Both the position numbers and the translations under genes were made by a program. The notes under the pieces were generated by a model, which saw nothing but the letters and a program-made list of their open reading frames with translations, did not search any database and was not told the DNA's origin. A stretch of DNA of 64,000 bases, from the NCBI RefSeq assembly GCF_045037415.1, contig NZ_CP173438.1; one strand, given 5' to 3'. Source of the DNA: Escherichia coli. GTDB taxonomy: Bacteria > Pseudomonadota > Gammaproteobacteria > Enterobacterales > Enterobacteriaceae. Each line of letters opens with the position of its first letter. Positions within the stretch are counted from its first letter, which is position 1. Below, one piece after another: positions 7,312 through 61,929 of the stretch.

Positions 7312-7926
7312 AACAGTTCTCCTTGTCTACACAGAATGATAATCAACTTGTCATGTGACAACTATACATTATCAAATGTAAAATTATTTGTGACACATGT
7401 AGATTTTTTGAACTGTATAATATTAAAAATGATGTCGTATGGAGTCATGATCTTTACAGGAATCAGCAGAGGAAAACATCTATTATTACCATGTAATTCA
7501 TGTTGTTATGTCGCAACAATAGTACTGCACGGGGAATTATTACGGGCAAACTTAGGCGAAAGGAAGTACTGAAGTGACAGAATAAATCACACTTTTTGTA
7601 CATATGTACTTTTCTATTGTCTTTTGTTGTGGAAACAAATAGTGTTTGTCATGCCGATGCTAATAGACAGATAGATTCGAGGGCCAACAGCCCCATCATC
7701 ATGATGGAGCAACAGAGGTGAGTCTAACGTTTCCGCACTTCTTATCGATCGGCACTAACGATCAATATCGATAAACTGATCTATCAAAACGATTATCTTT
7801 CTTGCAACCTGCCTGGTTATCCTTCTCTTACATTGCTCGCAGAAAAGCCCTTTTATTACGGTTAGTTATCTAGCTGAGACTTGCTACGCCCATTTTCCAT
7901 GTACCCCAAATCACGAGGTCACAAAG

Positions 7927-8110: not shown

Positions 8111-8857
8111 ATGAAAAATGGAATCGATGTCAGCGTCATTATCCCTGCTTACAACGCCGCTGAAACCAGCGTTAGTTTGGTTACTAAAATCCTCAGTGAA
8201 CCCCACTTGGCTATTGAACTTATCATTGTCGATGACGGTTCTACTGATGAAACTGGCAACGTTCTTCGTCAAATCCACGATGATCGGCTCATTCTCATTG
8301 AGCAGGCCAATCAAGGTGTCTATGCCGCCCGAAATGCTGCTCTAGCCTTGCACCAAGGAGAATAGGTTATATTCCTTGATGCGGACGACGATATAGCAGA
8401 TGGGTTCATAGAAAAAAGATGGCAGGCAGTTAGTACGTCGCAAGCCGACGTCATGATCTTTAATGGCTGGCATTCCTGTGCTGACCAACATCGAAGAGCG
8501 GTTCACAAAAAGCAGCCCTATGGTACGCCTCTGTCAGGTTATTAATGGATTAGACACTGTGTTACACACCGCGAATGGCCGCATTATCTGTGGCTGCAGA
8601 TGGTCAGGCCATCCTATGTCAGGCAGCATTCACTGCGCTTCCAGTCCGGCAGGAGCCATAAAGACATTTTTTAAACGGTTCATCTTGCAGCGAGCAATGG
8701 TTGATTCTGTACATTGGATATAAAGGACTATATCTATATCAACAATAAGGCCTCTATCACACATCGGCCGGATTACTACGTTGTTCGTGCTATAAACTAT
8801 GTTGAAGTGATCGCGAAAATCATCCAAGTAGCGGAACAAGAACAAAACAAAAAATAA
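8111..8857 (+). pseudogene. Family 2 glycosyltransferase, degraded by frameshifts and stops
   Basis: Intact N-terminus VSVIIPAYNAA...IIVDDGSTDET, then DxD motif (FLDADDD) and later segments only in other frames. Confidence 0.5.
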
Positions 8858-12823: not shown

Positions 12824-13547
12824 ATTTCTAGCCAAGCTGGCGATGAACCAGTCCTCTAAAAAATGGGTATAATCATAGTTTATTTACTAATTAAATTAAT
12901 ATAAAGTAATTACTTTATTATATGGAGAATTTATGAAAATGGGAAAAATTGCAGTTACTCCTAATAATGATAAAGCAGCCAGCCACTCTAAAGATGAAAA
13001 TTTAGCCACAAATACAATTAAGAAAAACGTAAAACCTAAATATGGCGATGCGGCATTTTTAGAGTACACTCGACTAATAGTTAACCACCCGAATTATTTT
13101 GGAATGCCAGATCCCTTTGGGGAAAAAGGTGAGATTCAATGGGAAGCTCCATCAAATAGGGCATCGGGGAAATTTAAACACACTCATCAACGGCGCTATG
13201 AATGGTGGAAAAATAAAGCCAGAAGTATTGGGATAGACCCTGACACTGAAAAAGCATGGATTAGTAAAACAGCTAAACTAATTCATCCACTTGGAGTTAA
13301 ACCATGCAAGAAATGCGGTAAAGAAATGGAATTATCTTACTCCTACCCAAATGAGCATTTCTTTTCTCGGGTTAGGAAACTTAATTATATAGATGAGACT
13401 TTTGAGCTATCTCAAAATGAACACATAGTTGATTTGTTGACTCGTTTAGATGATAGATTTGGTGAAAGAATATATTTAGATTTACCACATTTATTTTCTA
13501 CAAAATCCATCACGATTTGAAGTGGTCAACAAAAACTGGCCACCGAG

Positions 13548-14695
<1,148 letters not shown>

Positions 14696-15928
14696 TATGG
14701 CACCTGTGTTGTTCTGAGGTGAGCATATCACCTCTGTTCAGGTGGCCAAATTCAGTAAACCACTTCAATTCCAGATATTTCAAGCAATCTCGAAGCATGG
14801 ATTGAGTATCTAAAAGAACAATACATACCTCAAGAATCACGTATGCTTAGCCCTGGAGCCATGGCAAATCCTCCAGATCGTTTTGATGGATTTCATTCAT
14901 TTAACCGCTGTTGTCGCTCTATTGCTGATAAAGGAAGGACCAAAGAAAATCTTAAATCTTATGTTACTGACAGAAGAGTTTTCGAATATTGGGTGGATGG
15001 TGATTGGGTAGCTGCAGACAGGCTAATGGGCCAAGTTAGAACAAATAATATATTTATTAACGAGGAATGTTTGAATGCCGGAAATGGTGGTTTACATCCA
15101 ACTCCTTGCCAAGCAGATCACATTGGCCCAATCTCACTAGGGTTTTCCCATCGCCCACAATTTCAACTACTTTGCAAATCATGTAATAGTGCCAAAAACA
15201 ATCGTATGTATTTAAGTGATATAATCTCTTTATTAGAAGCTGAGAATGAAGGTCATACGGTTATTTCATGGTTCGCAGAAGAAGTATGGAATCGACTAAA
15301 ACACTCTGTAGATGATAGTGAAAAAGCCTTAAGACTAAGTAAAATACTACGTGATAATAGACATACATATATGAATCTTCTTAAAAAAATAATGGATGAA
15401 GGTTATTATACTTTCCTTGCAAGTCTTTTACATCTTGAGGTAGCCAATTATAACCCAATATTTGAGGGATTATGCATTTCAAATCATTTAACTCATTATA
15501 AATCATTAAAAAAAATAAAACGTGAATCAAAATATGCTGCTGTGCAAAAAACAAGACGAATCAGAATAGCATTTACTTCATTGAATGATTATCATAGAAA
15601 AGAAAATCGGAACGCATTTATTGTATCAAATGAATTATCTGAGAAGTTTTTCTCTGAAGCTATGGATAATTTAAAATCATTAAGTGAAATTACATCTTGC
15701 TTAGATGAAAAAATATCCGGAATAATATCTGAGAATTCAGATTCAAAAAATGAATTTCGAACAATCATTACAGATCTACGAGAAATAGTGACAAACAATA
15801 AAGAAAAATTCAACTTGATATTAAAATATCTAATATCAGGGATGAGCGAAATAGGAAAAGAACTGGAATCATATTGGGAAAATGATCGTTATGTTCGCTC
15901 AATCCCAGAAGAATTTATAGAGTAAGAC

Positions 15929-19790: not shown

Positions 19791-19901
19791 GACTCGATTT
19801 GCATACGGTATGGTGCTGCGTATTACCGTGAAGGAGATCGGTGAGTAACATCGATGGAGATCGGTTCGTGTCACTTTCACAGAACCGTTTTTAAATTACC
19901 T

Positions 19902-20651
19902 TCACTGATCTCCTTCGGTCAACGGAGATTGTATTTTCCGCATTGATTCTCCTTTAAGTTCGATCTTGATACTGCCATGAACCAGTCGATCTAGGATGGC
20001 ATCCGCATGTGTGGAGTCTCCGATCATTTTGTACCAGTTTTCCACCGGCAACTGGCTCACTACGATGATTGAGCCTCGTTGGTACATCAGATCCACTATT
20101 TCCAGCAGGTCGCTACGCTGTTCTGATGAGAGAGGTTCCAGCCCCCAGTCATCCAGAAGCAGCAGATCGCTATTATTCAGCCTGGTCAAAAGTTTGCTGT
20201 ATCTTCCATCAGCATGCCCCTGATAGCACTGTTCCATCAGCGCTTTAAGGCGATAATAGTAGACCTTGTATCCCTGTCGGCAGGCATTATGACCAAGTGC
20301 ACATGCCAGGAACGTTTTACCGCTGCCGGTGGCCCCGGTCAGTAAAATATTTTGTTTCAGGGTTAACCAGTTTCCCTGACTGAGTGAACGGATGAGGGCC
20401 CTGTCCAGCCCTCTATTGTTACGATAATCCAGCTTTGATAACTCAGCATTAAGTCTGAACCGTGCATGTTTGATCAGACGCTCTGCCTTCCTGTTTTCAC
20501 GGCAGGTTAGTTCTTCTGCTGTCAGTAATGACAGGCGTTCTTCGAAGCCCAGCTCCTGGTATGTGCCCGGTTGAGCAAGTTGCTTTTTAAGCGCATCACG
20601 GAAGCCGGTGAGTTTAAGTGCGGTCAGTTGTTCGTAAAGATGATTCATCAT
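19902..20651 (-). CDS. istB: IS21-family IstB ATP-binding helper protein
   Basis: 249 aa; Walker A LTGATGSGKTFLA, Walker B LLLLDDWG. Confidence 0.9.
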   Translation of the reverse strand: MMNHLYEQLTALKLTGFRDALKKQLAQPGTYQELGFEERLSLLTAEELTCRENRKAERLIKHARFRLNAELSKLDYRNNRGLDRALIRSLSQGNWLTLKQNILLTGATGSGKTFLACALGHNACRQGYKVYYYRLKALMEQCYQGHADGRYSKLLTRLNNSDLLLLDDWGLEPLSSEQRSDLLEIVDLMYQRGSIIVVSQLPVENWYKMIGDSTHADAILDRLVHGSIKIELKGESMRKIQSPLTEGDQ

Positions 20652-20662
20652 TGGATCCCGTA

Positions 20663-22204
20663 TCAGTGGTAATACTCACTGCCGCGTACGTTTTCGTGTT
20701 CCATCGTGGATAACAGATCTGGTTTTGGATCCTGAACAGGTTGTTTATCCAGACCTTTTTCCAGGATCGATTTAATACCTGACAGACGCCATACCTTTGT
20801 TTTCAGAGCTCTTGCACATGCTGCATTAAGTCTGGCTTTACTGTATTTTTTATGAAGGTTCAGGAGTCCAAGGCAGAAGCGATAGCTTTGTTCCGGATGT
20901 GGACGAGAGTTCAGTATATGAAGCACATAACTATGAGTTTCACTGCCTATGTGCCCCGCCCATTCCAGAAGACGCTCTGGCGTCCAGGTGGCATGCTGTC
21001 GATGAGCTTCAGGCATGTGCTCGTTGCGGGTACTGTAGCCATAAGTACGCTTGCGCGGGTGCACAGCAACCTCCTGCCCCTGATTGAAGAGTCTTACCAG
21101 TTCTCCGGAGATCCATGCTTCCAGTTGCTGGCCTAACAGCGAACATGGAACCGAGTAGTAATGTTTGTCGATTTCCACGTGGTAATCGGCATGAACTCTG
21201 ACTTTCTTCACCAGGGTGTAACTGTAACTGGCTTCAGGAAGAGGCTTCAGTGCGGGTTTATCAAGCTGGATGAAGAGTTCTGCACGTGAATAACCCAACT
21301 TCTGCATTATTTTGTTATTCAGTCTTTCCAGCAACTCCCGAATGCGCTGATTAAGCGATGCAAGGCTGTAGAAGATCTCATGCCTGATTCGGGCCATGAT
21401 CCAGCGTTCAACAACCTGAACGCCAACTTCAGCTTTGGCTTTATCTTTCGGTTTACGTGGCCGCGCAGGCAAAACTGCGACATTATAATGCTCAAGCATC
21501 TGCTGGTAGGTAGGGTTAACGTCAGGATCATACTTACATGCCCTGGATGTGGCGCTTTTCAGATTGTCCGGAACAACAAGTTCAGGAACGCCACCCAACC
21601 ACTGGAAGCAGCGAACATGACTCATCACCCAGTCTTCAAGCTGCTGAGACCAGGTGGCCTCTGCCCATGTGTAACTTGATGCCCCGAGAACAGCTACGAT
21701 GACCTGAGCAGTTCTTATTTCTCCGGTCTCAGGGTCGGTAACGCCAACGGTAGGTCCACAGTAATCAACGAAAAGTTTTTCGCCAGCTTTATGTACCTGA
21801 CGCATTGATGGTGAAGTGGTTTTGAGCCATTCACGGTACATCCGGCAGTAATGGTTATAGCTGTAAAAACCGCCTGGATTACGCTCACAGTATTCTTCCC
21901 AGAGTAGCTGCAGCGTCACGCATTTATTACGCAGTTCCCGGTGTACTGTAGCCCAGTCAGGCAGAGAGTGCTTCTTCATCTTAACCTGGGTCTGAAGGAA
22001 CGCATGTTTTAGTTTTGTATCATCCCATCCTGTAGGTAAGGGCCACTGCTTTATGCCAAGTTGAGCCGCCCGATTAGCATATCTGGATACAACGGAAGGG
22101 GAGATTGCAAGACTACGACCAATTTGTCGATGGCTGAGTCCAACACCGTATTTAAGCCTAAGAATTTCTTTAAGTTTTCTCATAGAAATTGGAACTGTTG
22201 GCAT
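20663..22204 (-). CDS. istA: IS21-family IstA transposase
   Basis: 513 aa; N-terminal HTH plus DDE integrase core. Confidence 0.9.
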   Translation of the reverse strand: MPTVPISMRKLKEILRLKYGVGLSHRQIGRSLAISPSVVSRYANRAAQLGIKQWPLPTGWDDTKLKHAFLQTQVKMKKHSLPDWATVHRELRNKCVTLQLLWEEYCERNPGGFYSYNHYCRMYREWLKTTSPSMRQVHKAGEKLFVDYCGPTVGVTDPETGEIRTAQVIVAVLGASSYTWAEATWSQQLEDWVMSHVRCFQWLGGVPELVVPDNLKSATSRACKYDPDVNPTYQQMLEHYNVAVLPARPRKPKDKAKAEVGVQVVERWIMARIRHEIFYSLASLNQRIRELLERLNNKIMQKLGYSRAELFIQLDKPALKPLPEASYSYTLVKKVRVHADYHVEIDKHYYSVPCSLLGQQLEAWISGELVRLFNQGQEVAVHPRKRTYGYSTRNEHMPEAHRQHATWTPERLLEWAGHIGSETHSYVLHILNSRPHPEQSYRFCLGLLNLHKKYSKARLNAACARALKTKVWRLSGIKSILEKGLDKQPVQDPKPDLLSTMEHENVRGSEYYH

Positions 22205-22917
22205 AGGTATCCTTTACCGGAATGGCAAAAGATACAGATCAACACACCTGTGAAGTTCCAATAACATTGATGGAGATCACTGAATAACAAAATGAGTCAA
22301 AAGTGATCTCCATCGATGTTATTCAGCGATCTGTTCAAATGTTATTACCCGATCTCGATGGAAGTTATTGAGTGATCTCCTTTCATGAAAATACGCAGGT
22401 GCGAAGGCCGGACTCAAACATGCGATTTAACCTCATGATTTAAAATTGTTAATAATAAACAACACCATCCTATACCAACACAGATACCAACACGAAAAAT
22501 CACTGGTTTTCGGCATCGAACCAGGACAATCAGGTCCTGATTGAGATACCGAGCTCTGTTACTCGTCATCTTCCTCGACAGGCTCCATTGCATCAAGTGG
22601 TACTCGCACCATCGCGATAGAACCAATCCGGATAAAAGCATCTTCCCCATCTATATCGGTTAACTGATATCGCTTACTTGATGCCGGATAATTGTGTCGA
22701 TTGGCAACAGTGTACTCTTTCGTACAGCCAGAATGTGGCAGACTGAGGTGGAATAGATAACGTCCGTATGCCCGCTGACCACCTCCGGGCGGGAGAGTGT
22801 GGTATCTGACATCATCATTTTTCCTTTCTGTTTATAAATGAAAATGCCAGCCGTGTTCAGGCTGACGTCAGGGAAGTGAAATCGGGTGAGTGATCTTCAC
22901 TGGTTCTGGTACAAAAG

Positions 22918-23599: not shown

Positions 23600-23973
23600 C
23601 GTTTCGCCTCCGGATGCTTCCCCAGGGTAATGTTATTTACCGTTCTGTAATTGTCGCGGATCATCAGGCCTGTTGCCCGGCGAGCCCGGAGGATATCGAT
23701 GCTGTTTATTAACTGAGAGTGGGTACAGGCGCTGAATCCCGGCAGGTCGGTACGTACCAGTGCGTATTTTTCCACGAGAAAGTTCACTGCATCACACAGT
23801 GAAATGCCTGCCTCAATATGCTGCTCAATCACACGTTCATCAGCGAACGGTGTGTCATTCAGCGTAAGGCCGTAGTGCTGGTCCAGCAGTCGGGTGAGCA
23901 GTGTCTGCCAGATGGTGACTGGAGACGGGCAGCACGATACCTCCCGTACATGCGTGTCGGGTAATGTTTTCAT
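23596..23973 (-). CDS. cbtA: CbtA/YeeV-family toxin (type IV TA, cytoskeleton inhibitor)
   Basis: 125 aa; ...[48 protein letters not shown]... matches recalled YeeV/CbtA. Confidence 0.85.
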
Positions 23974-24062
23974 ACTGAAGATTTTCCTGATATGCAGAGA
24001 TAAAAAATGGGACAGTGGCGTGGTGAAAACACCAGGCCGGAGCAGAAGGTTATTCTGGTGGT

Positions 24063-24431
24063 TTACTTTTTCGTTTCAGGTGTCGGATAAACAGCCAGAT
24101 AAACGTAACCACAGGAGCCGAGGGTGTCGGCTTCACAGGTCAGCCCCTTCGCATACAGTGTCACGGTATGCTGATGGCGGGGATTCAGTTCACCACTGGT
24201 GAGCATTAATTTCAGTTGTTTCATCAGCAGCGGAAAGGCCTGGTCCAGAGGGTACGCATCCGCATCTCTGAACCGGCCTCTGATACCGGCACGGTCGGCA
24301 AGGTAATGCAACCGGTTACCCTCCTGCACCAGACGGGCGCCGAAACAGGGCGTCACTGTGCAGGGTAGTCCCCACCAGGGATGGTCGTCATTGTCATCGG
24401 GATGCGTTGTCCCGGAAAGTGTGTCTGACAC
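24063..24431 (-). CDS. cbeA: CbeA/YeeU-family antitoxin (GTG start)
   Basis: [50 protein letters not shown]... matches recalled YeeU; immediately upstream of cbtA. Confidence 0.8.
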
Positions 24432-24593
24432 GATAAAATCCTCACAGAAAATCGGTGAATGATAGTTTAACGATGACGGGTCAGCCGGCGCGCAGACCGG
24501 CTTCGGTAAAGGTGTATTCGTTGATGAGCAGGACCTCATCCACAGCGGCGTCTGAGCTCTGCCAGTCGTACTCGTTTTCCGGGTGACGGAACA

Positions 24594-24815
24594 TCAGTTC
24601 AGGGTGACGCTCATCAGCCGGACATACGGACCAAAACTGTCCTTACGGCGTTCTGCAAACACGGCCAGCACACCGGGAATATCCTGCACTTCACGACCGG
24701 TATACGCTTCAGCACTGCCGTGCCAGCGGTATTTGCCGGTACAGAACGGAAAAAGACGGGATGCCGGATGCTGACGGTGAATACGCATGGCTTCGCCACG
24801 GGTGATGATTTTCAT
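24594..24815 (-). CDS. yeeT: YeeT-like DUF987 protein
   Basis: 73 aa MKIITRGEAMRIHRQHPASRLFPFCTGKYRWHGSAEAY... Confidence 0.75.
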   Translation of the reverse strand: MKIITRGEAMRIHRQHPASRLFPFCTGKYRWHGSAEAYTGREVQDIPGVLAVFAERRKDSFGPYVRLMSVTLN

Positions 24816-24877
24816 AGTGGGATACCTCTGAAGACAGAAGATAAAAGTGAAAACAGGTGTGATGTGGTTGTGACGGG

Positions 24878-25354
24878 TTAAAGCAGACCATATTCGGCAA
24901 AGGAGAAAACCTGGCTGCCACCGACTATCAGATGGTCCGGCACCCGGATATCCACCAGGCCCAGTGCCTGTACCAGACGTTCCGTGATAAGGCGGTCTGC
25001 CTTGCTGGGTGTGACTTCACCGGACGGGTGATTGTGTGCCAGCACCACAGCAGCGGCATTGTGATACAGGGCGCGTTTAATCACTTCCCGGGGATGGACT
25101 TCCGTGCGGTTGATGGTGCCGGTGAAGAGGGTTTCACCGGCAATCAGCTGATTCTGGTTGTTCAGATACAGCACCCGGAACTCTTCACGCTCCAGTCCCG
25201 CCATGTTCAGAATCAGCCATTCTCGTGCCGCACGGGTGGAGGTGAAGGCCACGCCGGGTTCATGAAGATGGCGGTCCAGGGTTTTCAGGGCCCGTTGAAT
25301 GAGGCTGCGCTCGCCGGGCGTCATCTCTCCGGGCAGAAAGGAAAGCTGTTGCAT
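24878..25354 (-). CDS. yeeS: RadC-like JAB-domain protein (YeeS/YkfG/YfjY family)
   Basis: JAMM-like motif HNHPSGEVTPSKAD; conserved CP4-island position. Confidence 0.8.
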   Translation of the reverse strand: MQQLSFLPGEMTPGERSLIQRALKTLDRHLHEPGVAFTSTRAAREWLILNMAGLEREEFRVLYLNNQNQLIAGETLFTGTINRTEVHPREVIKRALYHNAAAVVLAHNHPSGEVTPSKADRLITERLVQALGLVDIRVPDHLIVGGSQVFSFAEYGLL

Positions 25355-25369
25355 TGTACTTCTCTCCAT

Positions 25370-25843
25370 TCAGTCGATGATGCGCATAATGGCGCTGCAT
25401 TCCGGATGCTGCAGGGCGTAATCCCGCAGCCGGTAATAATGGACCGTCATGGCATAACACTCCGTACGACAGGCATGATGACTGTACGTCATCAGACAGG
25501 CAGCAATGCCGGCGGCTTCCGGGCTCATTTCAGCGCGGTTACCGTTCATGGCATTGAACAGTACCCATGTTTCGTCATCATCGTCATCCGGTTCGGGTGC
25601 CATAAATGCCCCGCCGTTGTTCAGGGTGTACAGATTCCAGATACCACCGCAGTAGTCTTCACACAGACGGTCCATCCAGCCGAAGATACGGGGCTCCAGG
25701 GTCACCCACTGTGGAATGAGGCCAAAGTGCTGCGGCCAGAAGCTGATGCGCCGTTCATCAGGGACGGGAGTGGCTACCAGTTTTTGCAGGTCAGTCTCCG
25801 GTGCACAGGCCGAAGAGGTGGTGTTCTGAGACAATGTTTTCAT
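25370..25843 (-). CDS. Antirestriction protein (ArdB/KlcA-like, YfjX/YafX family)
   Basis: ATG at 25843; MKTLSQNTTSS...FGLIPQWVTLEPRIFGWMDRLCEDYCGGIWNLYTLNNGGAFMAP... Confidence 0.8.
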   Translation of the reverse strand: MKTLSQNTTSSACAPETDLQKLVATPVPDERRISFWPQHFGLIPQWVTLEPRIFGWMDRLCEDYCGGIWNLYTLNNGGAFMAPEPDDDDDETWVLFNAMNGNRAEMSPEAAGIAACLMTYSHHACRTECYAMTVHYYRLRDYALQHPECSAIMRIID

Positions 25844-26184
25844 GTATGAAATCCTTGTAATGTGAATAAATGAGAGGGAGTAAAGGTCGGGAGCTGGCAA
25901 CATCACGTTCATCACTGACCGTGATGACCCGGTAATATCAGGGATGAATGATATTCGGCTGAAATTCCGGACAGCCGTACGCGTAACCGTTCCGGTCACA
26001 GACGGATGGCCAGATGCCATTGCCTGTATACTCAGTCTGCACAGACTGATTTCTCCGGGACGGTAAAGCAGACGGGTACACCAGGCGCACAGGTCATCAT
26101 CAGAAATGGAACGACACCCCGGCAGCGCCTCCGGGGCGTCGGGTGATTCTGGTGCCTGAATCACGCCTTCAGGGACATGCTGCA

Positions 26185-27003
26185 TCAGCGCAGGCTCTCC
26201 AGCAGCGTTTCTGCCATTACCCACAATGCGCGGTTGAGCTTAATATCGGTGTCGATGTTGTGAATGGCACGGGTGTGGATACGTTTTCCTTTTGCACTGC
26301 GGCCGGAAATTCCGCCTTTCAGCATATTCTCCTGGATGGTCTGATATGCGCTCCACAGGTCTTTACCGTAATCCTCCCGGCGTCGTGGTGTCAGAATGTC
26401 AGCGGTGGTGACTGGCTGATGTTCGTCACCATAACGGTAAGTCAGTGCCGCCTGTGCCAGCGCCTGGCGTGTCGGTGGCGGCAGGACCAGCGACTGCATG
26501 GCATCACGCTTTTCCTCAATCCGGTCAAACACGCCCACCACCTCGTAAGCCCCTTCAATGACTCTGTCCACCACATTTCCCCGATGCGGAACACGCACTT
26601 CCCCCGGAGACTGACCACAGACGCATCCGTTCTGACAGACGAACCTGAAGTAACCCGGCAGCATCTGGTAGCTGGAGGTACCGTCATGGGAGTTGAGCAG
26701 AATGATTTCAGGGACATGTTCTCCGTTTATCTCTCCGGCCCGCCGCAGACGCAGCATGTGTTTTGTGTATCCCCGGCGGCCCGGGTCGCGCACACGGGTC
26801 TGGCAGGCGAAGAATGGCTGAAAGCCTTCCCGCTGCAGGCTTTCCAGTACGGTGATGGTGGGAATGTACGCATATCGTTTACTGCGGGAAGTATGCCGGT
26901 CTTCACCGAAAATACTGGGAACATAGTGCATCAGTTCTTCGTGTGTCAGCGGACGGTCACGGCGTATCTGGTTCGTATAACCAAAACGACTGGCTAGTCG
27001 CAT
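26185..27003 (-). CDS. DUF932-family protein (YafZ/YfjQ-like)
   Basis: 272-aa ORF in the conserved position between Ag43 and the antirestriction gene. Confidence 0.7.
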   Translation of the reverse strand: MRLASRFGYTNQIRRDRPLTHEELMHYVPSIFGEDRHTSRSKRYAYIPTITVLESLQREGFQPFFACQTRVRDPGRRGYTKHMLRLRRAGEINGEHVPEIILLNSHDGTSSYQMLPGYFRFVCQNGCVCGQSPGEVRVPHRGNVVDRVIEGAYEVVGVFDRIEEKRDAMQSLVLPPPTRQALAQAALTYRYGDEHQPVTTADILTPRRREDYGKDLWSAYQTIQENMLKGGISGRSAKGKRIHTRAIHNIDTDIKLNRALWVMAETLLESLR

Positions 27004-27157
27004 AATTTGCTCCTTATCGGTGGTTAAGATTTACTGGTGTAATAAATGAAAAAGCCACGTCTCCCGGAGAAGACGCGGCCTGACAGATGAAATGAATGAC
27101 GTTTATTGTCTGAGAAGCCCTTAACTGGCGAGCTGAGTATTAAGCTGTGTTCCGGCA

Positions 27158-27352
27158 TCACCAGCGCAACTGACCTTCAGCATTACGGATAACCAGCCGG
27201 GAATATGTTCCCTGGTCATCTTCAGTAAACACATTGCGGTAAGCTGTTTTGACGGCAACAGCCTGTTCGCGTGAGAAAGGGCCTTCGGGCAATAAACGTG
27301 ATGTACAACCCGGCATATCTGTTGCTCCCTGAAAGTAAAAAGCCCCGGTCAT
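27158..27352 (-). CDS. Small hypothetical protein (DUF905-like)
   Basis: 64-aa ORF between flu and the DUF932 gene; family assignment uncertain. Confidence 0.35.
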
Positions 27353-27363
27353 GATGACCGGGG
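27336..27363 (-). terminator. Rho-independent terminator downstream of flu
   Basis: GCCCCGGTCATcATGACCGGGGC hairpin followed on the minus strand by TTTTT. Confidence 0.55.
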
Positions 27364-27386
27364 CCTGAAGGAGAGTGACCTGATTA

Positions 27387-30233
27387 TCAGAAAGTCACAT
27401 TCAGCGTGGCCTGACCGTTATAACCTTCAGCGCTGCTGCCGCTGACGCTGTGGGCATAACCGCCCTGAACGCCCAGGGTGATATTTTCCCGGATACGGGC
27501 TTCCAGTCCGGCCTGCAGGTCCAGTGACGTGCCATTCCGGGACGGTGAGAACGTCATGTTACTGCCGGCTGCGGCTGTCCCCATGCTCATGTCACCCCGG
27601 GAGCTGAAGGTGCGGATAACAGAAGGCTGTACCCACCAGTTCACCGGCAGTTCACTCACACTGTGTTTTGCACTGTCGCGCAGGGTGTCACGGGATGAGG
27701 TGCCTTCACCAAAGCTCATATCGTTGTGGCTGCCCAGACGGAAACCGGCACGCACATGTTGTGCACTGCCATGCCCGAACTTCACATAACCGGCGTTATC
27801 CTGGCCGTCATCCAGGGAGAGTCCCTGCCAGGTGTACTGCAGTTGTGGCTCCAGCATCAGATTGTCAGTGATACTGAAGGGCAGACCGGTTTCCAGTGAG
27901 CCCAGCCAGCCCCAGCCCCGGGCGCGGAAGTCGTTATTGTCCGATGACGCTTTCATGCTGTGACGGGTTCCCTGGGCCACAATGTCAGCCCACAGGCCGG
28001 AGGATGTGTGTACCAGATTCAGGTATCCGCCCAGACTGCCGGCATCATCCCGGACCGTGCCGGCGCGGGAGCCGTCATCATCCTTAACATCAACGGAAGA
28101 ATGGCCTGCGGCACCATACACCCCTGTCGTCAGAGACATACCGGCAACCTCTGTTCTGAGCAGGTCACCCTCCAGACGGACGAAGCCATAGCTGCCGCTG
28201 CTTTCCGGCGTGGCTCCACGGGCAATACCGCCGTTGTTATCGTGACCGAGATGACCGCCCTGAATGCTGAGACGGACGCTGTTATTTTCACCGTTTACAC
28301 CGGTCTGATGGCTGCGGGAGCCTGCCAGAATCCGGTCATAGTCCATTGCCTGTGTCAGCATGGATGTATACAGGGGGACTTCAGCACGATAAGCATTTTC
28401 ACTGCGCAGGTACCAGTCTTCATCGCTGTCACGGTTCAGGGTGTAGTTAAAGGCGCCGGCCTGAAGCGGGCGACTCAGGGCAAACGCACCTTCTTCTGTG
28501 GTGGCGCCATTCTGTGCATCCACAACCCGGATACCCTGTCCGGAGGTTGCCACCCCAAGGTTACTGTTTCCGACATTTGTAAACGCAAGCCAGGTTTTGC
28601 CGGTTGCCTGACCACCATTAATCACCAGCTGGTCAGAGGTATTGCTGCCATCAAGGCGAACACGCATATTGATGGTGCCACCCTGACCGGTGAGGTTACT
28701 GGTGGTCAGTTTATGGAACGTTACCGGGGAGTCGCCTTTTGCAACAGCACGGCTCAGCGCGGCATCCGGTGTCGTCTGATTATCAAAGCGAATCTCCCCT
28801 GCGTTAACAATATCGCCGGTACTGACCACATCACCATTCAGTACCATGCTGGCACCTTTACTGAGCTGTGTTCTGCCACTCAGATTTCCCCCGGCAGCCA
28901 GCGTCAGTGTTCCACGATGTCCGACAGTGGTGTTGCCAGCCTGTCCTCCGGCATTAACCGTAAAGCTGCCGCCATTTTCCAGCAGCAGGCCGCTGGCCTG
29001 ACCGGAGATACCATCAATACTGAACTTACCGCTGGCATTGGTCCCCTCAACAGTGGCACCACTGTCTGCTATCAGGGCACCACCGGATGTCATGGTGACA
29101 TCTGTTGCCTTACCACCGGCAGACACTGCCAGGATACCGCCGTCATCCACCAGGGTATTCTGCGCTGAATGGCCTTCCAGTACATCCAGGCGACCACCGG
29201 ACTCCAGAACAACACCGTCAGCATTACCGTTTTCCACAGTGAAATTGCCCAGACGGTTGCTGCCGGTGACGGTTGCCGCCGTACTGGTGACCAGTGCGCC
29301 TCCCTGCTTCAGGGTGACATTCGTGGCTGTACCACCGGCGTTCACCTGCAGTTTGCCTTTCTGGTTAACGGTGGTGAAATCCGCCAGACCACCTTCCTTG
29401 ACAATCTGCCAGCCGTCACTGTTTACAACCGTGTCAGAGGCTGTGCCTCCGTTGTGCACATACTGGTAACCGCCATTCAGTGTGGTATCCAGCGCATGCC
29501 CGTGTACCGTCTGGTCGCCGCCGGCATAAACCACAGTGGTATTTGCTGTTCCTTCAGCAGCCACAATCTGACGACCATTTTTATTGATGGTGGTACGTAC
29601 GGCATTTCCGCGAACAAACTGCCCGGTATCACCATTGTCTGCATCTGGTCCCCCTTCCGCGCCGGTATTCACAACCGTGTCGGTTGCCATTGCGCCGGAT
29701 TTGACGGCCTGCCAGCCCTTCTCATTAATGACGGTACCCGTTGCAATCCCGCCTTCATGTACCCACTGCTCACCGCCGTTCAGAGTGGTATTCACTGCCT
29801 GCCCCTGAAGGCTCTGTCCTCCTCCGGCACTGATAACCGTGTCTGAAACGCTTCCTCCGGCATTCACTCTCTGAAGACCACCACCGGTGACAGTAGTGTT
29901 GTTGGCGATACCGCCATTTTGTATCCATTGTCCGCCGGTATTGGCCTCGTTATCCGGCCCATACTCCAGCCCGGTACTGATGGTCATTCCGTTGGCCGTA
30001 CCGAGGACAATCTGGTTGTCATGATTTGTCAGTGTTCCGTCGTTCACGGTTTCTCCCGCCTGTACAACCGTGTCAGCAGCCAGTGCCGGGACTGATGTGA
30101 CAGCAGCAAGAGACAGTGCAACCGCCACACCGGCGCGTTTTCCCCGTGAGCGGGCCAGTTCGGAGGCCACCACCAGGGTGCCCGTAATGTGATTCCATAC
30201 CAGCCTGTAGCTGGTGTTCAGATGTCGTTTCAT
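27387..30233 (-). CDS. flu: Antigen 43 (AIDA-I-type self-associating autotransporter adhesin)
   Basis: ATG at 30233 ([18 protein letters not shown]...), extended signal peptide, repetitive beta-helix passenger, C-terminal beta-barrel ending ...ATLNVTF. Confidence 0.9.
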
Positions 30234-30444
30234 CAGCTTTTCCTTACAGAGGGTGAATAAAAAAGCCGGTACCCACAAAAGTGGATACCGGCAGGTACAA
30301 AACAGCATGGTCAGATAAAGTGGTTTTTCCCGGACATAAATGCTTCCCCTCTCTCATCCGCCAGAGAAGTATCAGTCCGTTGTGTGCAATTCCGTTCTGC
30401 ATGATGAAGAGATTCAGCTGCCTTTTCGCAGACCATTAACCACT

Positions 30445-30490
30445 ATAAACGATCGATGGTAACGATCGATACCTGTTTTATCGATCGTTT
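30445..30490 (-). promoter_or_regulatory. flu (agn43) phase-variation switch region with three clustered GATC (Dam) sites
   Basis: GATC at 30451-30454, 30464-30467 and 30483-30486 upstream of the flu start. Confidence 0.55.
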
Positions 30491-30580
30491 TATTCTATTA
30501 ACAGCAGAGCAGTCACGCAAGAGAAACAGGAGGGGGATGGAGTGTTTGTATCATGTTTTCAGTTGGTTAACGCAATGTAA

Positions 30581-31477
30581 TCAGGCATTTCCCCTGGCAG
30601 AGTGTTCAGAAGAAAATCCAGTTCCATACAGCGCGGGCAACAGAGACCACCGTGTCACGGACGGCACGCAGAACCGTGCGTGCAACAGAGGCAATACAGA
30701 CGCTCTCCGCCGTGTCAAATATCCGGTCCACCGCACCGGTAAACTGTTCACGGGCCTGAACCGGACAGATTCCGTGCGCAGCTCGTCCTGCAGGCGGGTC
30801 ATCAGGGGACTGGCGGCATGGTCGGGAAGTGCTGTCATGAGCGCACTGACCAGCGTATCCAGTTCCCAGCCGGTGCGGGCCGATACGGCCACAACCGGAT
30901 GTACGGGCCGGAACAGACGGAATACCGCCTCCGTTTTCTCCCGAATGTTCTGTGCCTGTGCGGGAGAAGGCTGAATGCCGGCCATATCCCATTCATGGCA
31001 GGGCTCCGTTTTGTCGGCCTGCGTCACCACAAACAGCACCTGCTGATGTCCCCGGTGCAGGATGTGTCGCCAGAAATACTCATCCACAGACAGGGCACGG
31101 TCATCGGCTTTAATCAGCCACAGTACCAGGTCAAGTTCAGGCAGAATGTCACGGTACAGGGCTTCATACTCTGCATCCCTGTTCCGGCTCTCGCCCACCC
31201 CGGGCAGGTCAGTGATAACCATGCTGTGACCATGGCCACTCAGACGGAAGCGCCGTACTTCCCGGGTGCCGGCGTGAACATCACTGACCGGGGTGACCTC
31301 CCCCTGAAACAGTGCATTACAGAGTGAGGATTTACCGGCCCCGCTTTTACCCATAATGCCAATCACGGGTTCGTGACTGGTGAGTTTGCGCAGATGTTCC
31401 AGGATGTGACGGGAAAGCGAGTAAGGCAGGGAGGAGAGCGGTTTTTCAATTGCCTCAATGGCATCAGACGGATTCAT
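30581..31477 (-). CDS. yeeP: YeeP/YkfA/YfjP-family GTPase, probable C-terminal frameshift near 30770-30780
   Basis: G1 motif GIMGKSGAGKSS, G3 DLPGVG; the conserved C-terminus (...QAREQFTGAVDRIFDTAESV...) is in another frame (ORF 30606-30992). Confidence 0.7.
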   Translation of the reverse strand: MNPSDAIEAIEKPLSSLPYSLSRHILEHLRKLTSHEPVIGIMGKSGAGKSSLCNALFQGEVTPVSDVHAGTREVRRFRLSGHGHSMVITDLPGVGESRNRDAEYEALYRDILPELDLVLWLIKADDRALSVDEYFWRHILHRGHQQVLFVVTQADKTEPCHEWDMAGIQPSPAQAQNIREKTEAVFRLFRPVHPVVAVSARTGWELDTLVSALMTALPDHAASPLMTRLQDELRTESVRFRPVNSLPVRWTGYLTRRRASVLPLLHARFCVPSVTRWSLLPALYGTGFSSEHSARGNA

Positions 31478-31561
31478 ACATGTATTCCCGGTGAAAAAAG
31501 ACAAAACCCCCGCACACCGGAAAGGTGGCGGGGGACTCACGGAGATAATATATGTCTGAAA

Positions 31562-32479
31562 TTATCTGGAATGTCGGTACCTTTTATACTCTTCAACAAT
31601 CAGGTCATGCAGCATTTCGCCGGTACTGAGTCTTCTGACCCTCGATAATTCTTTGAGCTGCGCCCTGGTTTCTGCGTCAAGAAAAAACTGTACATTGACT
31701 TTATCTTCCTGCATTTTTTTGTACTTGCGCTGCGCCTTGGCCTTATTGAAACTGTTTCTGAAATTTTTTATATCGTCAGGTGAGGTGAGTGGACAGGTAA
31801 CCCATATGTCAAATGAAAGGTGGATTGCGTGGTAAATATCAGCAGAACCAGGAAAACTGGCCAGTTTTTCCAGTGCAATATTTTTTCCCTTCAAATAATT
31901 CCATGTCCATATGCATTCATGTTCGTTCTCCGGGAGGAGGTAACTGAAAGGACTCTTTGATTTAAATGCCCGTATCCATCTGTCTTTGGTCTGGATTATC
32001 CACTCATCCCGCAAATTCTTATCAGAAAGAATATCGAGAACTCTGAGTATTTGTCTGAACTGTGTCGATGAGTCCGACGGGAAGGCATTCCCTTCCAGAT
32101 ACTCTTCTTTAAGATACAGTTTATTCTTTTGAAGCAAGTCTGCGCTTATTTTTGCCCTGTTATTCTGGATAAACTGCATCAACAGATACCAGGAAAATAA
32201 GCATGCGCGTTCACTGCCCGCGATCCAGGATATTTTTTCCAGGGGGACCAGGAAGGCCAGGGCCTTCAGACGCATACCAGAAATTATTTGTTCAAGTTCA
32301 AAATCTGAAAGTGTGATGTTCAGATTTTCTCTGTTTTTTTTTATGTAAGCGATAAAACGTTCCGGGGGATCATAAACATTAAGGGGCAGTACGGAGATAT
32401 TACGCTCTCCAAGATAATAAGAGTAATACGCATTTGTTCTTTCATTCATAACCTTATCCGACAAAATTTTCTGAACCAT
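31562..32479 (-). CDS. Hypothetical protein (305 aa) with C-terminal ribbon-helix-helix-like segment; AT-rich
   Basis: Long uninterrupted ORF; C-terminus VNVQFFLDAETRAQLKELSRVRRLSTGEMLHDLIVEEY; no recognised family. Confidence 0.6.
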   Translation of the reverse strand: MVQKILSDKVMNERTNAYYSYYLGERNISVLPLNVYDPPERFIAYIKKNRENLNITLSDFELEQIISGMRLKALAFLVPLEKISWIAGSERACLFSWYLLMQFIQNNRAKISADLLQKNKLYLKEEYLEGNAFPSDSSTQFRQILRVLDILSDKNLRDEWIIQTKDRWIRAFKSKSPFSYLLPENEHECIWTWNYLKGKNIALEKLASFPGSADIYHAIHLSFDIWVTCPLTSPDDIKNFRNSFNKAKAQRKYKKMQEDKVNVQFFLDAETRAQLKELSRVRRLSTGEMLHDLIVEEYKRYRHSR

Positions 32480-42572: not shown

Positions 42573-42968
42573 TTACTGATAGTGTTTTATGTTCAGATAA
42601 TGCCCGATGACCTTGTCATGCAGCTCCACCGATTTTGAGAACGACAGTAACTTCCGTCCCAGCCTTGCCAGATGTTGTCTCAGATTCAGATTATGTCGCT
42701 CAATGCGCTGAGTGTAACGCTTGCTGATAACGTGCAGCTTTCTCTTCAGGCGTGATTCATACAGCGGCCAGCCATCCGTCATCTATACCACGACCTCAAA
42801 GGCCGACAGCAGGCTCAGAAGACGCTCCAGTGTGGCCAGAGTGCGTTCACCGAAGACGTGCGCCACAACCGTCCTCCGTATCCTGTCATACGCGTAAAAC
42901 AGCCAGCGCTGACGTGATTTAGCACCGACGTAGCCCCACTGTTCGTCCATTTCAGCGCAGACAATCAC
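42573..42968 (-). pseudogene. insB: IS1 insB with internal nonsense codon (TAG at 42783-42785)
   Basis: Reads ...[20 protein letters not shown]...; canonical IS1 has W at the stop position. Confidence 0.6.
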
Positions 42969-42994
42969 ATCACTGCCCGGTTGTATGCGCGAGG

Positions 42995-43270
42995 TTACCG
43001 ACTACGGCCTGAGTTTTTTAAGTGACGTAAAACCATGTTGAGGCCAACGCCCATAATGCGTGCACTGGCGCGACATCCGACGCCATTCATGGCCATATCA
43101 ATGATTTTCTGGTGCGTACCGGGCTGAGAGGCGGTGTAAGTGAACTGTAGTTGCCATGTTTTACGGCAATGAGAGCAGAGATAGCGCTGATGTCCGGCAG
43201 TGCTTTTGCCGTTACGCACCACGCCTTCAGTAGCGGAGCAGGAAGGACATCTGATGGAAATGGAAGCCAC
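42995..43270 (-). CDS. insA: IS1 InsA
   Basis: 91 aa [42 protein letters not shown]... Confidence 0.9.
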
Positions 43271-43498
43271 GCAAGCACCTTAAAATCACCATCATACACT
43301 AAATCAGTAAGTTGGCAGCATTACCGAAATCCCCATCCTTTAGGGCAGTGAGGATGTCAATAATAGCAGACCACATCATGAGTCATTCTGACCGACACAT
43401 GCCAGAAGCAGAGGCTCCATCCCATTTTATACCTACCTTATAACACTTAGAAAAACAACATGTTAAAAATGTCTATTGGAAACAATTTTATTTCCAAT

Positions 43499-43527
43499 TG
43501 TAATGATAACCATTCTCATATTAATAT
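43499..43527 (+). promoter_or_regulatory. Putative Fur box in fecI promoter region
   Basis: tgtaATGATAACCATTCTCATattaat resembles Fur consensus GATAATGATAATCATTATC; about 40 bp upstream of fecI. Confidence 0.45.
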
Positions 43528-43561
43528 GACTACGTGATAATTAACTTTTGATGCACTCCGC

Positions 43562-44079
43562 ATGTCTGACCGCGCCACTACCACAGCTTCCTTAACGTTC
43601 GAGTCGCTTTATGGCACACATCACGGCTGGTTGAAAAGCTGGCTGACGCGCAAACTCCAGTCTGCTTTTGATGCAGATGACATTGCCCAGGACACTTTTT
43701 TGCGGGTAATGGTCAGCGAAACGCTCTCGACGATCCGCGATCCTCGCTCCTTCCTCTGCACTATCGCCAAACGCGTGATGGTGGACCTGTTTCGCCGAAA
43801 CGCGCTGGAAAAAGCGTATCTGGAGATGCTGGCGCTTATGCCGGAGGGGGGAGCGCCTTCACCTGAGGAACGCGAAAGCCAACTCGAGACCCTACAACTC
43901 CTCGACAGCATGCTGGACGGGCTAAACGGCAAAACACGTGAAGCGTTTCTGCTTTCGCAACTGGATGGTCTGACATACAGCGAGATTGCGCACAAACTCG
44001 GTGTTTCCATCAGCTCCGTGAAAAAATACGTGGCGAAAGCCGTCGAGCACTGCCTGCTGTTCCGTCTGGAGTATGGGTT

Positions 44080-44083
<4 letters not shown>
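43562..44083 (+). CDS. fecI: ECF sigma factor FecI
   Basis: 173 aa matching recalled FecI. Confidence 0.95.
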
Positions 44084-47444
<3,361 letters not shown>

Positions 47445-47488
47445 TGTGTTAACGCCCGGCTTGCCGGGCTTTTAGCTGGAATGTGATT

Positions 47489-61008: not shown

Positions 61009-61929
61009 ATGGACATTGCAGTTATTGGTTCCAATATGGTGGATCTCATTACTTACACTAATCAGATGCCTAAAGAAGGAGAAACTCTGGAAGCACCTGC
61101 CTTCAAAATCGGATGTGGTGGGAAAGGTGCTAATCAAGCGGTGGCGGCGGCTAAATTGAATTCAAAAGTCCTGATGCTGACTAAAGTAGGTGATGATATT
61201 TTTGCGGATAATACTATTCGTAATCTTGAATCATGGGGAATTAATACCACTTATGTTGAGAAGGTCCCCTGTACCAGCAGTGGTGTTGCACCGATCTTTG
61301 TTAATGCCAACTCGAGCAATAGTATATTAATAATTAAGGGAGCGAATAAATTTCTTTCCCCGGAAGATATCGATCGAGCTGCAGAAGATCTGAAAAAATG
61401 CAAATTGATCGTTTTACAACTGGAAGTTCAACTGGAAACAGTTTACCACGCGATTGAGTTTGGTAAGAAAAATGGTATTGAAGTGTTATTAAATCCGGCT
61501 CCGGCATTGCGTGAGTTAGATATGTCTTATGCCTGCAAATGTGATTTCTTTATCCCGAATGAAACAGAACTGGAAATATTAACCGGTATGTCGGTTGATA
61601 CTTATGATCATATTCGTTTGGCCGCACGTTCGTTAGTTGATAAAGGGCTGAACAATATTATTGTTACCATGAGCGAAAAAGGCGCATTATGGATGACCCG
61701 CGATCAGGAAGTCCATGTTCCTGCATTCAAAGTAAATGCTGTTGATACTAGTGGCGCTGGTGACGCATTTATTGGTTGCTTTTCCCATTATTATGTTCAA
61801 AGCGGTGATGTTGAAGCCGCTTTGAAAAAAGCCGCTCTCTTTGCCGCTTTCAGCGTCACAGGGAAAGGTACGCAATCATCTTATCCGAGTATTGAACAAT
61901 TTAATGAATTTTTAACCTTAAACGAATAA
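61009..61929 (+). CDS. deoK: Ribokinase-family sugar kinase (deoxyribokinase-like)
   Basis: PfkB motifs GGKGANQAVAAA and DTSGAGDAF; ATG at 61009. Confidence 0.8.
   Translation: MDIAVIGSNMVDLITYTNQMPKEGETLEAPAFKIGCGGKGANQAVAAAKLNSKVLMLTKVGDDIFADNTIRNLESWGINTTYVEKVPCTSSGVAPIFVNANSSNSILIIKGANKFLSPEDIDRAAEDLKKCKLIVLQLEVQLETVYHAIEFGKKNGIEVLLNPAPALRELDMSYACKCDFFIPNETELEILTGMSVDTYDHIRLAARSLVDKGLNNIIVTMSEKGALWMTRDQEVHVPAFKVNAVDTSGAGDAFIGCFSHYYVQSGDVEAALKKAALFAAFSVTGKGTQSSYPSIEQFNEFLTLNE

Follow-up and report, generated by a model that had tools for sequence, protein, structure and literature searches.

A predicted agn43-type Dam/OxyR phase switch of the long-leader class upstream of an intact cah gene in Escherichia coli

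Three GATC sites lie close together in the 5' region of an Ag43-family gene, cah/flu, in a 64-kb stretch of E. coli DNA (hereafter, the window), raising the question of whether this gene is controlled by the Dam/OxyR switch known from agn43. [quoted passage not shown] The initial annotation of the locus proposed that the arrangement of the three sites is such a switch. The spacing of the sites, the -10 region, the match to the OxyR consensus, the conservation of the region, the IsrC-type leader and the intact downstream gene all support this proposal. We estimate a probability of about 0.85, from sequence comparisons, that the cis-regulatory region of cah/flu works as an agn43-type epigenetic phase switch. 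The switch is of a known type; judged from its elements, it is complete and precedes an intact gene. The features are listed in Table 1.

Table 1. Coordinates of the predicted switch, the downstream gene and the flanking GATC-free stretches in the window.
Feature	Position	Strand	Remarks
GATC-I (Dam site)	30483..30486 (minus-strand order 30486..30483)	both	at the predicted transcription start
GATC-II (Dam site)	30464..30467	both	19 bp from GATC-I, as in K-12
GATC-III (Dam site)	30451..30454	both	13 bp from GATC-II, as in K-12
-35 hexamer TTGCGT (predicted)	30515..30520	minus	3/6 match to TTGACA; 17 nt upstream of the -10 hexamer; aligns with K-12 TTGTCC
-10 hexamer TAGAAT (predicted)	30492..30497	minus	5/6 match to TATAAT
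OxyR left half-site ATAGAATAAAACGAT (predicted)	30484..30498	minus	8/10; overlaps the -10 box and GATC-I
OxyR right half-site ATCGTTACCATCGAT (predicted)	30452..30466	minus	8/10; overlaps GATC-II and GATC-III
Central spacer GATAAAACAGGTATC	30468..30482	minus	differs from K-12 AATATCTATTTTATC, which has the CTAT element
5' leader, IsrC (IS102) equivalent	30259..30486	minus	predicted start site to leader terminator
Intrinsic terminator in leader	30259..30292	minus	12-bp stem GCCGGTATCCAC/GTGGGTACCGGC (30292..30265), then U6 (30264..30259)
cah/flu CDS, 948 aa	30233..27387	minus	intact Ag43/Cah-family autotransporter
GATC-free flank (6.8 kb)	23663..30450		cah and downstream island genes
GATC-free stretch, other side (1.7 kb)	30487-32221		

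The three sites start where they had been annotated, at 30451, 30464 and 30483, and span 36 bp from first to last base. The interval originally assigned to the switch, 30445-30490, contains all three, but leaves out the promoter and, in the left OxyR half-site, the ATAG arm (30498..30495). The sites indeed belong to the flu 5' region; however, they are not upstream of the promoter, as they are predicted to coincide with the minus-strand transcription start and to follow it closely. In K-12 MG1655, the GATC sites start at positions 1818, 1837 and 1850 of sequence L001, and the start-to-start spacings of 19 and 13 bp are the same as in the window. A MAFFT alignment of the two regions placed an 11-base gap within the GATC core; this gap was wrong, and an ungapped manual alignment yielded identical spacing. 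The window and K-12 agn43 also share the -10 region AATAGAATAAAACGATC, the GATC flanks ATCGATCGTT and ATCGATCG, two 8/10 OxyR half-sites 17 bp apart, a leader with the IsrC terminator, an Ag43-family gene downstream and a yeeP-like GTPase gene upstream. In contrast, the centre of the switch reads AAAACAGGT in the window and ATCTATTTT in K-12, so that the window allele has neither the CTAT element nor the compact N7 arrangement of OxyR contacts. The two loci differ also in the leader, the middle of which is barely alignable (253 nt from GATC-I to the ATG, compared with 222 nt in K-12), in the -35 hexamer and in the encoded protein, which is of the Cah class in the window and has 1039 residues in K-12. 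The yeeR and irmA genes are not found downstream in the window.

A generic promoter scan detected no sigma-70 promoter at the cah switch, because the scan required at least 4/6 matches per hexamer and the -35 hexamer has only three. The promoter was placed by homology. The TAGAAT hexamer is the same in K-12, CFT073, EAEC 042 and two Citrobacter species. The 5' end of K-12 isrC is annotated at the G of GATC-I, and the corresponding Rfam model starts 2 nt upstream of GATC-I; by comparison with both, transcription would start at about 30486, and the GATC sites would therefore occupy positions +1 to about +36 of the transcript. The 228-bp distance from the start to the ATG that was determined by RACE in strain EC958 (PMC4807369) agrees with transcription from GATC-I in an allele of the short-leader type.

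The absence of an OxyR-binding sequence around the triplet would have argued against the switch. A consensus site is present there, it is conserved, and it is the best one in the window. Both strands of the 64 kb were scanned with the half-site consensus ATAGnTnnnAnCTAT. The pair formed by the left and right half-sites, separated by 17 bp (N17), scores 16/20, the top match in the window (the runner-up scores 13) and equal to the score of the K-12 site. The centres of the half-sites are 32 bp apart, a spacing termed canonical for reduced OxyR at opvAB (PMC4856963). The half-sites are predicted from the consensus and from conservation, and the left one contains the -10 hexamer, so that the putative OxyR site overlaps the predicted promoter and start. 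The compact N7 arrangement was rejected for the window allele, in which it scores approximately 10/20, a background level, versus 14/20 in K-12. The CTAT element, which occupies positions +12 to +15 in K-12, is absent from the window allele and is replaced by AACA.

Conservation was assessed using the pattern CGATC-N13-TCGATCG-N6-TCGATCG, which fixes the GATC cores and their spacing, run on one genome per species and on metagenome contigs. Homologues were chosen solely by downstream features, either the leader terminator or the Ag43 signal-peptide coding sequence. Most matches outside enterobacteria (cyanobacteria, MAGs) are chance occurrences in CGATCG-rich DNA that lack the ATAG arm. The selection comprises 83 homologous loci, corresponding to 56 unique sequences. 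In the latter, the positions specified by the OxyR consensus are 93–100% conserved. The ATAG of the left half-site is invariant and is also kept in Citrobacter modules; in the right half-site, the positions left free by the search pattern, T28 and A32, are conserved at 93% and 100%, respectively. Positions 29–31, which are unspecified ("n") in the consensus, are the most variable of the core (48–86%). The module occurs in three Citrobacter species too, where the invariant positions are unchanged and other bases stand at the "n" positions. Promoter elements are similarly maintained in the 56 alleles: the TTG of the -35 hexamer is present in all, and the -10 hexamer is 96–100% conserved at pattern-free positions. 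These data indicate that an OxyR-binding sequence is present at the locus and is under constraint.

The alleles fall into two switch lineages. The centre of the spacer reads AAACAGG in 42 and YCTATTT in 14 of the 56 unique alleles. Among the 83 loci, AAACAGG is always associated with leaders of 252–259 nt (60/60) and YCTATTT with leaders of 220–228 nt (23/23). By these features, the window allele is a long-leader "Cah-type" switch, devoid of the CTAT element typical of K-12. All K-12-type loci, and 55 of the 60 Cah-type loci, score 16/20 for the extended N17 OxyR arrangement. The long-leader type precedes mostly genes of the 948-aa Cah class (38), but also 1039/1040-aa genes (7). Of 5426 complete E. 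coli genomes, 3444 have the Cah type, counted by the presence of the window's 384-bp upstream region at ≥80% coverage, and 1781 have the K-12 type. The CTAT element is not treated here as a defining feature, because it is absent from the majority class. Its absence suggests that the element is dispensable in nature and points to which OxyR geometry matters: the bases common to both lineages and to the copies in Citrobacter mark out two OxyR half-sites with 17 bp between them. A close relative of the window allele is O157:H7 cah, the regulatory region of which is 97.9% identical over 384 bp and which precedes a gene of the same class and length in a different genomic island context. We found no accessible experimental study of the O157:H7 cah switch.

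The gene downstream is intact and full-length. The protein matches NCBIfam NF033177 over 948/948 positions with a score of 1994 bits (cut-off 1200), and features the Pfam domains ESPR (signal), AIDA repeats, AC_1 (autochaperone) and Autotransporter (beta-barrel). In the near-identical genome NZ_CP023844, the gene is annotated as "calcium-binding autotransporter Cah". Several complete E. coli genomes match the 384 bp that precede the ATG with 100% identity; in an identical genome, this region is likewise flanked by the yeeP-like GTPase gene and the Cah gene. In the window, the yeeP-like gene (30581-31540, minus strand) differs from that of E. coli strain 4/1-1 by a 1-bp deletion near 30760, which replaces the last ~50 residues and shifts the stop codon from 30606 to 30581; like K-12 yeeP, it is probably a pseudogene.

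By analogy with K-12 agn43, the locus would work as follows. A sigma-70 promoter (TTGCGT-17-TAGAAT) would start transcription at about GATC-I. An OxyR tetramer would bind the two 15-bp half-sites, one of which includes the -10 box and GATC-I and the other GATC-II and GATC-III. Bound OxyR would stop RNA polymerase and shield the three GATC sites from Dam, resulting in an unmethylated OFF state. If Dam acted first, in the interval that follows replication, OxyR would be excluded and the gene transcribed, resulting in a methylated ON state. Both states would be inherited and would flip now and then. In the ON state, transcripts would reach cah by reading through the terminator in the 253-nt IsrC-like leader. 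The 64 kb include neither dam nor oxyR; as core genes of E. coli, the two are assumed to be present in the host. Since the centre of the Cah-type switch differs from that of K-12, OxyR affinity and switching bias may differ.

[quoted passage not shown] At K-12-type switches, repression results from the binding of OxyR to the unmethylated site, methylation blocks OxyR and allows full expression, and expression is intermediate when both Dam and OxyR are missing; the states are heritable, and switching occurs at ~1e-2 to 1e-3 per generation (PMC4872104; PMC3764049; PMC13337833; PMC2909390). Such alleles are known to form ON and OFF lineages with alternative methylation states, and are locked OFF by loss of dam and locked ON by loss of oxyR (PMC2909390; PMC4807369; PMC9431211; PMC4872104). 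Deletion of oxyR increases agn43 mRNA 121-fold in the ST131 strain EC958 and derepresses the operon in CFT073 (PMC4807369). Fusions of the EAEC 042 flu promoter gave rise to ON and OFF clones (PMC9431211). One indirect indication concerns the 948-aa class: in E. coli Nissle 1917, expression of Ag43c (948 aa) and of the downstream DUF932 gene yfjQ was massively raised in one plasmid-cured clone (PMC11056357); in our reading, which is not that of the authors, this jump possibly captured an OFF-to-ON switch. If the switch in the window is functional, expression of this aggregation and biofilm adhesin should be heterogeneous in the strain. This matters for transcriptomes and phenotypes obtained from single colonies, a pitfall known as that of the "right colony" (PMC3764049), of which the Nissle 1917 Ag43c jump may be an instance (PMC11056357).

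The switch may be present with an altered function. Replacement of CTAT by AACA could cause the loss of a middle OxyR contact, leaving either the extended geometry of reduced OxyR only or a weaker binding, and the allele could be biased to ON or responsive to oxidative stress, unlike K-12 agn43. The compact N7 score indeed falls from 13–14/20 in K-12-type to 9–10/20 in Cah-type loci, while the N17 score stays at 16/20. In addition, centres and leader types co-segregate perfectly, and all the experimentally tested alleles that we inspected (K-12, CFT073 agn43a and agn43b, EAEC 042 flu_2242 and flu_4511) turned out to be of the K-12 type. In the accessible literature on cah regulation, we found no direct experiment on a Cah-type long-leader switch, and three SMRT methylome papers (PMC4490391, PMC4659465, PMC6602927) report no per-site data for agn43 or cah. 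However, both GATC-bearing half-sites are fully conserved, and the Cah type is the commoner of the two, which argues for a working element. [quoted passage not shown] On balance, we regard an altered function as unlikely. It is similarly doubtful that the Cah type, as defined by its centre AAAACAGGT and a 253-nt leader and carried by about two-thirds of complete E. coli genomes, is a functionally distinct class that uses only the extended, reduced-form OxyR arrangement. If it were, the site would be released by OxyR in its oxidised form, for which four adjacent contacts are necessary, and the OFF-to-ON transition would become sensitive to oxidative stress; at the least, switching rates would differ from those of K-12 agn43.

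The leader bears on a second alternative, in which the main role of the element is to express an independent small RNA (IsrC/IS102) or to recruit SeqA, with no phase-variable control of cah. The Rfam family RF00124 (IS102/IsrC), which is typed as an sRNA gene, matches positions 30488..30252 on the minus strand with 68.1 bits (gathering score 46, E 1e-10). The match ends past the terminator and spans the full model (1-206), with internal insertions of 41 and 63 nt compared with 35 and 35 in the model, and the fold of the leader RNA has a z-score of -2.86. A strong terminator, common to the window allele and K-12, precedes cah, and closely spaced GATC sites could bind SeqA when hemimethylated. 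In contrast, IsrC has been described as the terminated leader of agn43, with flu expressed by antitermination or read-through (PMC5389530). We found no separate cah promoter in the 25-nt gap between the terminator and the ATG, and deletion of oxyR raises the agn43 mRNA itself in several strains (PMC4807369). A small RNA or SeqA element without control of cah is thus very improbable, and a phase switch acting on cah by read-through of the leader is the reading that we retain.

By number alone, the triplet is within chance. The window contains 215 GATC sites; if they are placed at random, each window is expected to have ~1.1 triplets confined to 36 bp (P of at least one = 0.65); three triplets within 40 bp are present (7747-7781, 30451-30486 and 61372-61410). 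It is the context, and not the count, that makes the triplet non-random: its three sites are the only GATCs in the ~8.5 kb from 23662 to 32222. The adjacent gap of 6792 bp was not reached in any of 5000 simulations, in which the largest gap was 4297 bp, and the probability that three random points in ~8.5 kb fall within 36 bp is ~4e-5, a post-hoc estimate given by 3(r/L)^2. Three Dam sites within 36 bp in the midst of a GATC desert are the pattern that selection for those sites would be expected to produce. The idea that the triplet is a functionless cluster, for which the ~1.1 triplets expected and the two others present could speak, is refuted by the comparative data, as the sites hold the exact positions of their K-12 counterparts, are invariant with their flanks across divergent alleles and genera, and coincide with the best OxyR match of the window, isolated in a GATC desert.

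The two remaining triplets have different surroundings. The 7747-7781 cluster (spacing 13 and 18 bp) is in intergenic DNA that carries no annotation, with mtnK (minus strand, starting at ~7311) on one side and, on the other, a 55-aa Cys-rich ORF with a truncated GT2 glycosyltransferase gene (8111-8365, plus strand). It includes a 7/10 OxyR-like half-site, ATCGGCACTAACGAT, with no paired site, and 1075 of the 5426 complete E. coli genomes contain the region. The cluster could be a remnant of a gtr-like Dam/OxyR locus, or simply be due to chance. The 61372-61410 cluster (spacing 15 and 20 bp) is within a pseudogene fragment of a PfkB-family kinase, which is interrupted by an IS in strain 4/1-1, and seems to have arisen by chance within coding sequence.

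The larger of the two GATC-free stretches, 6.8 kb in length, includes cah, DUF905, DUF932, an antirestriction gene, JAB/RadC, DUF987, yeeU and part of cbtA. No GATC is found in the cah CDS, versus 6.8±2.1 expected, and none of 2000 synonymous-codon shuffles reached zero. By the same procedure, K-12 flu contains no GATC versus 8.6 expected, and CFT073 agn43b two versus 10.6. The DUF932, antirestriction and JAB genes each contain none, versus ~2.4 expected. TCGA is likewise depleted in cah (0 versus 3.9). At most of the 83 homologous loci, the switch is likewise separated from the next GATC by >3 kb on the downstream side and >1.1 kb on the upstream side. Under-representation of GATC in genomic islands has been reported in a methylome study (PMC4659465). 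One possibility is that the desert, with no site in cah where about seven are expected, reflects selection for keeping processive Dam or SeqA away from the switch.

The predicted switch may be compared with other methylation-dependent systems. As in Salmonella gtr (P22, LT2) and opvAB, GATC sites lie inside the OxyR half-sites, GATC pairs are 13 bp apart, and the spacing of half-sites is typical of reduced OxyR (PMC2909390; PMC4856963). However, at gtr and opvAB, three or four half-sites with alternative occupancy precede the promoter, and OxyR can act as an activator. In contrast, the window has one OxyR site, made of two half-sites and located over the -10 box and the start, and OxyR is predicted to function as a repressor only. 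In Pap-type Dam/Lrp systems, Dam similarly competes with a DNA-binding protein, and the outcome is a methylation pattern that is inherited, but these systems involve Lrp and PapI and two GATC boxes 102 bp apart, and show no sequence similarity to the window (PMC2909390).

Copies of the same module, with a TAGAAT-like -10 hexamer, three GATC sites spaced by 19 and 13 bp and both OxyR half-sites, are also found upstream of non-Ag43 genes in C. braakii (L009 5108-5145), C. amalonaticus (L018 941-978), C. werkmanii (L003 7175-7212) and two metagenome contigs (L112 and L043). The C. braakii copy precedes genes for two small proteins with signal peptides (154 and 157 aa), after which comes the same DUF932/antirestriction/JAB island backbone. 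The genes behind the copies in C. werkmanii, L112 and L043 encode a small multi-pass membrane protein and a secreted protein of ~120–140 aa; SMODS and SLATT genes come after in L003. Searches for Pfam and NCBIfam families returned no match for the small proteins encoded downstream of the Citrobacter copies. The distribution of the module suggests that the agn43-type switch is a portable cassette, able to serve other surface or secreted cargo.

Apart from IS content, the window is 99.98–99.99% identical to E. coli strain 4/1-1, in reverse orientation. The IS differences consist of an ISEc52-like copy at 13517-14767 and an IS21-family element (istA, 513 aa; istB, 249 aa) at ~19816-22398. GATC sites with a 23-bp period are found at the end of the latter (22305-22374), where a search for a tandem repeat found none. 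The island also encodes, at ~42900-51400 (mapped to L144 10672-18693), a type II restriction-modification system of the Alw26I/Eco31I/Esp3I family, consisting of an adenine methyltransferase, a dcm-like cytosine methyltransferase and an endonuclease, with adjoining McrBC genes. This system bears on the methylome of the strain, but not on GATC.
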